A stretch of DNA of 64,000 nt, taken from NCBI GenBank assembly GCA_965203555.1, contig CBDBCY010000004.1:2304001-2368000 (forward strand). The letters run 5' to 3'. The translations under genes and the position numbers were made by a program. Positions within the stretch are counted from its first letter, which is position 1. Each line of letters begins with the position of its first letter. The notes below the pieces were generated by a model that was given only the letters and a program-made list of their open reading frames with translations, ran no database searches and was not told where the DNA came from. Shown here one piece after another: positions 1,464 through 4,503 of the stretch. The DNA is from Acidimicrobiia bacterium (lineage in GTDB: Bacteria > Actinomycetota > Acidimicrobiia > Spongiisociales > ZC4RG35).

Positions 1464-1486
1464 TTGTCACACCCTCTGTGCATACT
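1464..1486 (+). promoter_or_regulatory. PafBC/RecA-NDp-type DNA-damage promoter motif, leaderless start at ATG 1493
   Basis: TTGTCACAC-8nt-CATACT resembles the mycobacterial consensus tTGTCRgtg-N8-TAnnnT. The ATG follows 6 nt after the -10 box. Confidence 0.55.
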
Positions 1487-2507
1487 GTAGACATGAAACA
1501 AACAGTCAACAGTCGGCGGTCCGCCAACCTGGCCAAGTTGCTGTCACCCACCATGCCGGTCGTGGATGCGTCGGTTGAAGAACTGAAACAGCGTATCCAG
1601 TCCACCATCCGTGTCCAGAACCAAGTGGCGGCGGTCCGCGCCCAGGCGGTGTCGGAGTTGCGCCGCCGCCAGGGGACGGAGAAGGTGGAGACGATTTTGC
1701 GGGAAGACGGTCTGTTGGGCCGTCGGAAGGCACGGTCGGAGGTGGAGACCGCCAAAGAATTGGAGGAGCTGCCCAAGACGCGGGAGGGTTTCCTAAAGGG
1801 AGAGATCTCTGCTGACAACGCGCGTATCCTGGCGGGCGCCAACCAGAGGGGAACCATCATCGAGGACGAATTGTTGGACGGTGCCCGTTCCCAGTCTCCT
1901 GACAAGTTCGCGGCTACGGTACGCAAACACGAACAGAAGCGTTCAGAGGATGATGGTGTTTCCAAGTTGGAGCATCAGCGTTCCCGCCGGTTCGCGAGGA
2001 TCACCACCGACCAGGACGACGGGATGACCGTCCTGTACGGGCGTTTCGACCCGGTCACCGGCGCCCGGGTGGAGACGGCGGTGTCTCACATGATGAAACA
2101 ACTATGGCACCAAGAAGACCCCACCGAGCGGGCTACTGCGGGTCAGCGGATGGCCGACGCCATAGCCGAACTGGTCACCCGCCAAGGAAAAGACGGTCGA
2201 TCGCAGGGCGTGCGGTTGTTGTTGATCGCCGACTACGACACGGTCAGCCAACAGTTGGGCAACCCTCGCCTCGAGAACGGAACCCCCCTCCCCGCCCGTA
2301 CGCTACGCCAGTTGGCCTGCGACGCTCAGATACTCCCCGCCGTCTTCTCGGGTTCGTCGGTGCCGTTGGATTTGGGACGGGCGCGGCGGACGGCCAGCGG
2401 TTCCCAACGGGCCGCGCTGGTCGCCCGGGACAAACACTGCATCGGGTGCGGCGCCAAGGCCTCCTGGTGCCAGGCGCATCACATCGTCCACACTCATACT
2501 TATAGGC

Positions 2508-2684
2508 GTGTCCGGGCCGGGCAAGTCTGACTCAATCGTTAACCGACCTGTTGTCTTGTGCCAGATCTGTCGGCTTGTTCCGGCCCGGACACAAGCACCT
2601 CCCGAAGGGGGGCGGGGTGACTTGATAGGAGCTTTGATTTCTCCGCCACCGCGAGTGTTCCGTCCGCTGCTCCCCTTTTTCGGG
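2508..2684 (+). ncRNA. IS110 bridge RNA (target-binding and donor-binding loops)
   Basis: Stem GTGTCCGGGCCGG (2508-2520) / CCGGCCCGGACAC (2580-2592) encloses ATCGT and TGCCAG, which match the target flanks. A second stem (2601-2621 / 2662-2684) encloses ATAGGAGC and GAGTG, which match the element's own ends. Confidence 0.8.
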
Positions 2685-2719
2685 CAGGTCGAAAGAAGCG
2701 TACCTCGAAAGAGGGGAGG

Positions 2720-3936
2720 ATGAACATGAAGAACCGGGCTGATATCTATGGTGGGGTTGACACCCATCGTGATATGCATGTCGCAGCAGTGGTGGACACC
2801 ACCGGTCGAGTCCTGGGAACGGCTTCGTTTCCGACCGATACGATCGGCTACCAACAACTACACGATTGGTTCAGGTCATTGGGAAGGGCACTCCGAGTAG
2901 GAGTGGAAGGCACCGGAAGCTACGGTGCCGGCCTGACCCGTTATCTGACCCGGGTCGGTATCGAGGTGGTGGAAGTCAACCGTCCCAATCGCCAACTGCG
3001 CCGACAGAAGGGCAAGAGCGACACCGTGGACGCTGAAGCCGCCGCCCGCGCCGCTGCCAACGGTATGGCCACTGCTCTGCCCAAGACCGCCGACGGGCCA
3101 GTAGAAGCGATACGGATGTTGCGGGTCACCCGCCGCTCGGCGGTCAAAGCCCGCACCCAGGCCGCCAACCAACTGCACGCCCTGGTGGTAACCGCTCCCG
3201 AGCAGGTAAAACACCAACTGGTGGGCAAACCCATCCGTACCAGGGTCAGGATCTGCGCCGCGTTCCGTCCCGCCGACGACCACACCACTGTCGCCTACAC
3301 CAAGAAAACTCTCCGTCACCTCGCCCGCCGCTACCAGACACTCACCGCAGAGATCCGAGAACTAAACACCGAAATCGAACGTCTCTGCGTCCGGGTCAAC
3401 CCAGCACTCATCGCCGCGGCCGGGGTGGGCCCGGACGCAGCAGCCGCGTTACTGATAGCATCCGGCGACAATCCCCACCGCTTGCGCTCAGAAGCATCCT
3501 TTGCGGCGCCAGTCCCGTCCAGGCCTCCTCAGGACAGACCGTACGGCACCGCCTCAACCGCGGCGGGAACCGCCAAGCCAACAACGCCCTCTGGCGTATC
3601 GCCATCACCCGCATGCGCATCAACCAACCCACCCAGGAGTACGTCCGAAAACGCCAATCCGACGGCAAAACCCGCCGCGAAATCATCCGTTGCCTCAAAC
3701 GCCACATAGCTCGAGAGATCTACCACCTACTCACCAACCCCCCACCAACACCCGACACCGCCCAGCTCCGCACCCAACGACAACACCACCAGATCACCCT
3801 CACCCACGCCGCCACAGCACTCCGCATCCACCCCACCCTCCTCTCAAAACTGGAAAAAGGCCAACACCACGACCACCAACTCGCCACCACCTACCAACAC
3901 TGGCTCACCACCCAAAACCCGATTTGGAAAAAATAG
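2720..3936 (+). pseudogene. IS110 transposase/recombinase, frameshifted near 3508
   Basis: 'GGVDTHRDMH', 'GVEGTGSYG' and 'GKSDTVDAEAAA' (DEDD domain). After 'SEASFAA' the conserved 'SPVQASSGQTVRHRLNRGGNRQANNAL...RCLKRHIARE' continues in another frame to the stop at 3936. Confidence 0.9.
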
Positions 3937-4503
3937 GAGCATCTGGCAAGACGGGGGTCCCACGAACCTGGACAACATGTGTCTTTTGTGCAGCAGATGC
4001 CACCACAAAGTCCACGACAATGACTGGACAGTACACAAAACCCCAACCGGCGAATACACCCTCCGCCGCCCATCAAGCATCGCCTGGCGACCACGGCACC
4101 GTACCCCCAACCGCTACCGCCGCCGATCCACGCGCCGACGCCCGATCAAACAGAGAAAATGACCGAACCCGCGTCCTGTCTCTATGGTTCCTGCCAGCCC
4201 GTTTTTGCCACTCTTGATCCACGCCCATCCCCAATGGTGTCCCTGGAAGCACTTTGAACACCAGATACAACACCCCGCTAATTGTTTACCGGCTCAAACG
4301 GTCATAAACAGCGCGCCACCTCCCAAACCGGGACGGCAACCCCCGCCACCTGCCGCCATACTCCCGTCACCTGCCAAACAGCGTTCAACACCTTACAGAT
4401 TCAACAAGCCTGCCCATGCACCCTGACACCGCAAAACAAACCGCTATCCGTCCACTGAATCCCAACATCTCCACCGCTACACCACCCAGGCGTGAAACAC
4501 GCC

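Follow-up and report, generated by a model that had tools for sequence, protein, structure and literature searches.

An IS110-group insertion sequence in an Acidimicrobiia genome whose left end probably encodes a bridge RNA with readable guides

In the stretch of Acidimicrobiia DNA analysed here (64,000 nucleotides, termed the window), a gene of the DUF222/HNH family is interrupted by an IS110-group insertion sequence of 1452 nt at 2492-3943, and the question raised by this locus is whether the long left end of the element encodes a bridge RNA whose guides can be read against the insertion site and the ends of the element itself. A reading of the sequence alone (the sequence-only reading) had proposed such an RNA, with a target loop and a donor loop, and placed it in a divergent actinobacterial system. 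The reference point is IS621 of Escherichia coli, for which a bridge RNA acting with its recombinase is described (PDB code 8wt6; PMC11208160, Durrant et al. 2024; PMC11208158, Hiraizumi et al. 2024). The answer reached is that the left end very probably does encode a bridge RNA with readable guides, at a rough probability of 0.9, and the points shown directly are the boundaries of the element to the base, its protein family, the stems, and guides that match the flanks and covary with them.

The termini of the element read exactly ACTCAT...GGAGCATC, with a single C as the sole ambiguity. The host gene is readable through 2440-2500 as far as ...CATCACATCGTCCAC, where it is broken, and restarts at 3944 with TGGCAAGACGGGGG. 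The nine bases left and five bases right of the element were joined by script and the whole genome was searched with the result; the uninterrupted 14-mer (ATCGTCCAC followed by TGGCA) occurs nine times, always in paralogous HNH genes with the context caggc.ca.cacATCGTCCACTGGCAagacggggg, and four further occurrences with one mismatch include three in an HNH context. Contigs assembled from public runs give the same limits, some ceasing to match at 2491 and continuing into the right flank and others beginning to match at 3943 after the left flank. From the nine empty sites and the loose ends at 2491 and 3943 it therefore follows that insertion added the element exactly, without scar and with no target duplication beyond the core. 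One contig of run X1 joins 2491 to 3989 with only 21 letters on its shorter side; it could not be interpreted and was set aside. The left end is non-coding over 234 nt (2492-2725) and 7 nt separate the stop codon from the right terminus, the long left end and near-absent right end being the arrangement of the IS110 group rather than of the IS1111 group. The DUF222/HNH family is highly multicopy, with perfect free targets for example at 136737, 1178493, 1263569 and 2538251 of contig C4; every one of the nine perfect copies of the 14-nt target remains unoccupied, as do several near-perfect ones, and the only interrupted copy is that of the window.

Four strings in the left end had been singled out by the sequence-only reading, namely ATCGT (2535-2539), TGCCAGAT (2559-2566), ATAGGAGC and GAGTGT, and each is found where it was placed. 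The reverse complement of TGCCAGAT is read as ATCTGGCA across the right junction (3941-3948), ATAGGAGC recurs identically at the right end of the element, and the reverse complement of GAGTGT, ACACTC, lies across the left junction (2490-2495). The match to the left target had been called partial on the basis of ATCGT; the pentamer stands, and the match is refined to the 9-mer ATCGTTAAC compared with ATCGTCCAC, with 7/9 identities and one of the two mismatches being a would-be G-U wobble. When the 222-nt left end was shuffled 100,000 times by mononucleotide, the 5-mer appeared at a frequency of 0.17, the two 8-mers at 0.0026 and 0.0022 and the 6-mer at 0.06, and no shuffle contained all four strings (0/100,000). 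The ATA/TAT subterminal repeat of IS110-group donors (ATA 3933-3935, TAT 2501-2503) was considered as a further feature and rejected, since relatives with ACTCATAATGG have no TAT.

The comparison of guides with flanks across related elements carries most of the argument. One genome per species was scanned with the intact recombinase of a second copy in the same genome (L002), 185 relatives were confirmed and the best 80 kept, and these together with five sequences from the genome itself make up a set of 85. The relatives come mostly from Acidimicrobiia assemblies, several of them with sponge-symbiont names, and some from Rhodococcus, Cryobacterium and Burkholderiales. The motif ATAGGAG(C/T) is found in the left end and again 1050-1750 nt downstream at the right end in 69 of the 85 sequences. 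Guides were read at fixed offsets from conserved anchors, and the left boundary was set by complementarity to the right donor guide. Dropped from the counts were 16 sequences in which no loop motif and right-end motif were paired at the expected distance, three with less than 150 nt upstream (L019, L081 and L084), two with scant right flank (L064 and L067) and two with no left boundary (L066 and L091), which leaves 62 elements in 48 distinct element/site combinations and 39 guide classes; 2194 cross pairings of guides with sites of other classes serve as the control.

The right guide matches its own site at 5/5 positions in 28 of the 48 combinations and at 4/5 in 11 (39/48 with at least 4/5), compared with 3, 30 and 33 of the 2194 cross pairings, respectively. 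For the left guide the own-site counts are 18 at 9/9, 15 at 8/9 and 8 at 7/9 (41/48 with at least 7/9), compared with 1, 7, 18 and 26 cross pairings. At the window site the best of the 39 guide classes is the one belonging to the window, with 12/14 positions, the next best reaching 8/14. Homologs at different sites with unchanged loops had been named in advance as the outcome that would speak against programmable guides; the loops differ and track the flanks of each element. The earlier term of a divergent actinobacterial system is narrowed by specifying the host as Acidimicrobiia. Two registers, offset by a single base, occur for the left guide (35/48 and 13/48); in the second register a loop U would lie opposite the core C and form a wobble.

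The same tracking is visible within the one genome (3.4 Mb in four contigs), which holds four further near-full-length copies (L002-L005) with 72% identity to the window element. L002, L003 and L005 have common flanks and lie inside a transposase gene of the ISL3 family (PF01610, E 1.1e-20) and L004 lies elsewhere. Three different elements can be told apart in the genome: at one and the same loop position the window copy carries TGCCAGAT, L002/L003 GGTTTGAT and L004 TGGTGGAT, each the exact reverse complement of its own right junction, composed of ATC and five flank bases. The left guide of L004, AACCTAACC, agrees with its own left flank at 9/9 positions and that of L002 at 7/9. In the donor loop, GAGTG is followed by T in the window element and by G in L002 and L004, in step with the target base preceding the core (A for the window element, C for the others). 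A contig of run X5 shows the same element behind another left flank, which is matched by a G-to-A change in the left guide (G2538A); over 2490-2859 this contig has one other letter and four gap positions, and the five bases right of the element are unchanged. This difference in flank is evidence of recent movement of the element.

Folded as a single sequence, the left end of the window copy gives -100.5 kcal/mol with a z-score of -2.95. RNAalifold applied to a MAFFT alignment of the 39 classes recovers the closing stem of the target loop and also its capping hairpin, with compensatory changes in 12 of the 24 predicted stem pairs of the target loop and many G-U pairs, which are possible only in a transcript of the + strand. 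In the same run the first four bases of the left end are paired with the right donor guide, again with compensatory changes; variants of the left end covary with the guide (alignment columns 34-37 with 251-254), both sides having changed in 3-4 of the 39 sequences at three of the four pairs. The donor loop matches both ends of the element, the right donor guide by complementarity and covariation and the left donor guide by identity only. The closing pairs of the donor loop, G.GAC/GTCC, are invariant in 39/39, and a basal stem drawn by hand is 84% paired, with its four strongest pairs invariant and its covariation unconvincing. RNAalifold run on the donor-loop segments alone returned a small hairpin within the guide region and no covariation.

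In IS110 elements a promoter is described as being rebuilt across the junction of the excised circle (PMC11208160). Circle junctions modelled here by joining the ends by script contain a perfect TTGACA and a 17-18-nt spacer to a -10-like box, which overlaps ACTCAT(A/C), in 30 of 39 elements. The promoter score is at least 9/12 in those 30/39, compared with 2/39 in the integrated context, so that a circle-junction promoter is predicted in silico.

The intact recombinase of L002 (404 aa) contains PF01548 (E 9.2e-26) and PF02371 (E 1.4e-18). It aligns with the IS621 recombinase (PDB code 8wt6) at E 3.5e-11 over two short stretches and with that of ISCro4 at E 6.4e-10, and in the printed alignment the Asp, Glu, Asp, Asp and Ser that are essential in IS621 all face conserved residues, the nucleophilic Ser of the Tnp domain among them. 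The presence of both domains in the intact paralog, the layout of the left end and the two internal-loop modules placed as in IS621 support the proposed bridge RNA with its target and donor loops. The recombinases of L002, L003 and L004 are intact (404-407 aa) and that of L005 is cut at its 3' end. In the window copy a 10-nt deletion relative to the intact paralog shifts the Tnp domain out of frame and PF02371 is not detected. At 3501, ten additional letters are present in contigs of X2, X4 and X5, runs that stem from three other studies, and absent from X1; the deletion is therefore private to this lineage and intact forms of the window element exist. The window copy is unable to move by itself because its recombinase is frameshifted; the genome also holds intact paralogs that share its donor module and might in principle act on the window copy. 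The repaired recombinase that the sequence-only reading had envisaged for testing needs no repair, as natural intact versions exist. A C-terminal extension of about 65-75 residues absent from IS621 (window 3740-3936; L002 ~340-404) gives a helix-turn-helix match too weak to pass the curated cut-off (HTH_31, E 1.3e-4), and shorter relatives with elements of ~1280-1300 nt align only up to about residue 339.

The right guides had also been read as extending across the junctions in the manner of handshake bases, and covariation at both handshake positions supports this. In IS621 the handshake guides pair with the non-cognate DNA just 5' of a core that is a CT dinucleotide (PMC11208160, PMC11208158). 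In the target loop of the present clade CTGTCGG is preceded by three bases whose reverse complement is identical to the final three bases at the right end of the same element; this holds for 38 of the 39 classes, the variants GTC (4) and TTC (2) included. In the donor loop, agreement with the target is seen for the two bases that follow the core-pairing G: the first corresponds to the target base immediately before the core in 43/48 combinations (cross control 0.41) and the second to the base before that one in 30/48 (control 0.26); the third does not correspond (8/48 compared with 0.165).

A mechanism consistent with these observations would begin with a bridge RNA of ~170 nt encoded by the left end (234 nt), from about 2506 to about 2680. 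The 5' side of stem-loop 1 would present a left target guide of 9-10 nt in top-strand sense, able to pair with the bottom strand. The 3' side would carry a 5-nt right target guide for the top-strand bases immediately to the right of the crossover, then a G opposite the core C, and finally two handshake bases able to pair with the final two bases of the donor. Stem-loop 2 would be built likewise, with ATAGGAGC matching the right end, GAGT plus G matching the first bases of the left end plus the core, and one or two handshake bases matching the target immediately to the left of the core. By analogy with IS621, excision as a circle would join the TTGACA -35 box of the right end to the -10 box of the left end and switch the RNA on, the junction promoter starting it near 2506, just ahead of stem-loop 1. 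Recombination between the circle junction and a target of 14-15 nt would follow, carried out by the complex of recombinase and RNA at the one C that both share. We infer that the guide is RNA, that the junction promoter functions and in which order the strands are exchanged.

Several observations weigh against a bridge RNA, some of them in the window copy itself: its left guide has two mismatches, its recombinase is broken, its -35 box is weaker (TTGGAA), and a promoter and terminator scan of the integrated copy made no call on the + strand. A permissive Rfam scan of 2300-4200 returned five matches, all with E of at least 0.46 and below the gathering score, a null result of limited weight given that the library may have no bridge RNA model. 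In the wider set, the donor-loop stem beyond its four invariant pairs is weakly supported (covariation 0.117, equalled by 47/500 shuffles), ATAGGAGC is kept at both places in 69/85 sequences so that the left donor guide has neither variation nor covariation, and the match of the right donor guide is partly circular through its use in placing the left boundary. L016 and L036 match with neither guide; L020, L021, L054 and L059 combine a good left guide with a right guide of only 2-3 of 5; L069, L070 and L074 score low, probably from a failure of the anchor rule in longer loops, and were not re-scored. In run X4 the change G2538A is found at a site still aligning to the left target of the window, and so does not always track the target. 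Among the sequencing runs listed none is recorded as RNA, and the choice of RNA over DNA as the guide rests on homology and the G-U pairs, and covariation between loops and flanks alone cannot separate an RNA guide from single-stranded DNA of the element acting in the manner of IS200/IS605. A DNA guide of this kind is nevertheless very unlikely: the protein belongs to the same Pfam families as IS621, whose guide is shown to be RNA, and has the catalytic residues conserved, the many G-U pairs of the stems fit the + strand only, and a promoter is rebuilt upstream of the structured region in 30/39 modelled circle junctions. The left end might instead be a 5' leader or a set of subterminal repeats bound by protein, with the resemblance to the flanks due to chance or to site preference of the protein, as the invariance of ATAGGAGC in both places (expected of a protein-binding site) and the individually unremarkable 5-mer and 6-mer matches (0.17 and 0.06) would allow. 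This is the least probable of the explanations considered, given that 39 guide classes track 48 sites (cross pairings 3/2194 and 26/2194), which is beyond the coding of one conserved protein, and that the handshake positions covary with the non-cognate partner.

Within the bridge-RNA reading, the length of the core is the point on which the clade may depart from IS621. The sequence-only reading had noted one base shared between donor and target, and this is upheld by the nine empty sites and by 44/48 sites with C, the preceding base not being shared. At the crossover the remaining sites have T (three) or G (one, in which the boundary is probably misplaced); donors without exception have T in the preceding position, which in the 48 targets is A in 26, C in 13, G in 5 and T in 4, and the base following the crossover is mixed. 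The shared core observed is therefore one base, and a dinucleotide of the IS621 form is not seen. In the three T sites the left junction retains the target T and the right junction the donor C, an inheritance that would fit exchange of the top strand just 3' of the core, as in IS621. The same inheritance allows a different account, in which the core is a dinucleotide as in IS621 (TC in the donor) with a mismatch-tolerant first position and the appearance of one base is an artefact of strand inheritance: T precedes C in every donor, the left junction always has the base of the target and the right that of the donor, a pattern predicted by exchange of the top strand 3' of the core with inheritance of that strand, and the first core base of IS621 can be reprogrammed (PMC11208160). 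This account is improbable, since the target base before C is T in only 4/48 sites (A 26, C 13, G 5) and since at this position the donor loop pairs with the target base (43/48) rather than the donor T and the target loop pairs with the donor T, which is handshake behaviour. A requirement for one shared C only, with T tolerated in 3/48 sites and the adjacent base serving as handshake, can be put forward tentatively, at a little under even odds, together with cross-mobilisation of circles by the RNA of other elements; nearly every position of the 14-15-nt target would then be free to program. Because at least 39 guide classes have one donor module in common (ATAGGAGC-N-TC / ACTCAT, conserved in a clade spanning Acidimicrobiia to Rhodococcus and Burkholderiales), the RNA of one element could mobilise the circle of another. 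The misfit of L016 and L036 in the presence of this common module suggests mobilisation by the RNA of another element or recombination between elements. The L016 site agrees with guides of the L026 type at 13/14 positions.

Compared with the known systems, the element resembles IS621 in having a DEDD RuvC-like domain and, in the intact paralog, a Tnp domain with aligned catalytic Asp, Glu, Asp, Asp and Ser, a long left end predicted to encode the RNA with a very short right end, and two internal-loop modules. The left guides are in top-strand sense and the right guides complementary, the right target is 5 nt, each loop has a 2-nt handshake guide, a promoter would form at the circle junction and there is no target duplication beyond the core, features known in the present case from sequence. 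It differs in that the protein is distant (E 3.5e-11) and about 65-75 residues longer at the C terminus, one C is shared in place of the CT dinucleotide, the left guide has 9-10 bases in two registers and the left donor guide ends two bases short of the core. ISCro4/IS622 (PDB code 9t56; 10.1101/2025.05.14.653916) likewise recognises 14 bases and has handshake guides upstream of the core; it is enterobacterial with a CT or GT dinucleotide core, and its protein aligns with that of L002 at E 6.4e-10. The IS1111 group has the same recombinase family and an RNA guide, whereas its RNA lies in a long right end with long subterminal inverted repeats (PMC11208160); here the RNA would lie in the left end, and the element therefore belongs to the IS110 group and not to IS1111.

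Judged from sequence comparison, the system appears real, well supported and unsurprising to a specialist, a genuine but ordinary member of the recently described bridge-RNA elements that leaves the known mechanism unchanged and has the one-base core as a possible variant feature. Bridge RNAs are of interest as programmable recombination tools, and the characterised ones require a fixed dinucleotide core. In the literature searched no one-base core was found among bridge systems (the supplementary tables of Durrant et al. may list other core lengths), nothing was found on ATAGGAGC in connection with IS110, and no paper was found on such elements in Acidimicrobiia or sponge bacteria (the supplementary tables may include the clade). 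The present work adds a natural clade, validated by comparison, from a phylum absent from the discussion in that literature, and this clade offers 39 natural guide variants on one donor module, intact natural recombinases and one apparently fixed crossover base. In the host, an apparently sponge-associated bacterium of the Acidimicrobiia, the elements home into conserved motifs of multicopy genes, those of the HNH nuclease family and of the ISL3 transposase. The coordinates of the features are collected in Table 1.

Table 1. Features of the element, its predicted RNA and the interrupted gene, in window coordinates
Feature	Position	Strand	Details
IS110-group insertion sequence	2492..3943	+	1452 nt, ACTCAT...ATAGGAGCATC; empty paralogous sites, four 72%-identical same-genome copies, 62 related elements
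Host gene 5' part (DUF222 domain, start of HNH motif)	1478..2491	+	PF02720 DUF222, E 5.7e-22; frame resumes at 3944
Host gene 3' part (second half of HNH domain)	3944..4162	+	PF01844 HNH, E 3.1e-5, profile positions 22-46 of 47
Left target ATCGTCCAC	2483..2491	+	C2491 is the single core base; nine uninterrupted paralogous sites; contig loose ends stop at 2491
Right target TGGCA	3944..3948	+	Sequence read; 5/5 guide match; empty paralogous sites
Right donor (first bases of left end)	2492..2497	+	Complementary to 2653-2656; overlaps -10-like hexamer CATACT 2495-2500
Stem-loop 1, predicted target-binding module	2508..2593	+	Outer stem 2508-2518/2581-2593; closing stem 2519-2531/2569-2580; capping hairpin 2545-2547/2553-2555
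Left target guide ATCGTTAAC	2535..2543	+	Same sense as left target; 7/9 identical to 2483-2491
Right target guide TGCCA	2559..2563	+	Reverse complement of right target TGGCA; 5/5
Core-pairing base and target-loop handshake	2564..2566	+	G2564 would pair with core C; A2565-T2566 complementary to last two donor bases AT, 3941-3942
Stem-loop 2, predicted donor-binding module	2600..2675	+	Closing stem G2617, G2619-C2621 with 2662-2665; single-sequence fold
Left donor guide ATAGGAGC	2625..2632	+	Identical to 3933-3940
Right donor guide	2653..2658	+	GAGT 2653-2656; core-pairing G2657; handshake T2658 would pair with target A2490
Run of T after stem-loop 2, possible RNA 3' end	2676..2680	+	Direct sequence reading; putative, terminator scan gave no call
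Recombinase gene	2726..3936	+	PF01548, E 4e-25; broken by 10-nt deletion near 3498-3509, placement ambiguous (short repeat)
Right end	3933..3943	+	Left donor ATAGGAGC, handshake bases AT, core copy C; stop codon TAG at 3934-3936

Among the sister copies, the element of L002 (711-1514; also L003 and L005) sits at the conserved ...GINNLI... motif of the ISL3-family gene, and the near-identical flanks of these three copies may reflect either a nested pair copied as a unit or repeated hits on one site. L005 is truncated at its 3' end and adjoins a tandem GATCACTGAAATTCCCC-like repeat. A degenerate member (L008, minus strand of contig C4 at ~648490) has a left end with both loops and no right end at the expected distance. 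In another assembly at least 12 elements lie in repeated ...CCCCACTGAAATCC / GATGAGCC... sequence (flanks of L026-L033, L037, L043, L060 and L061), which may be a REP-like repeat serving as target.

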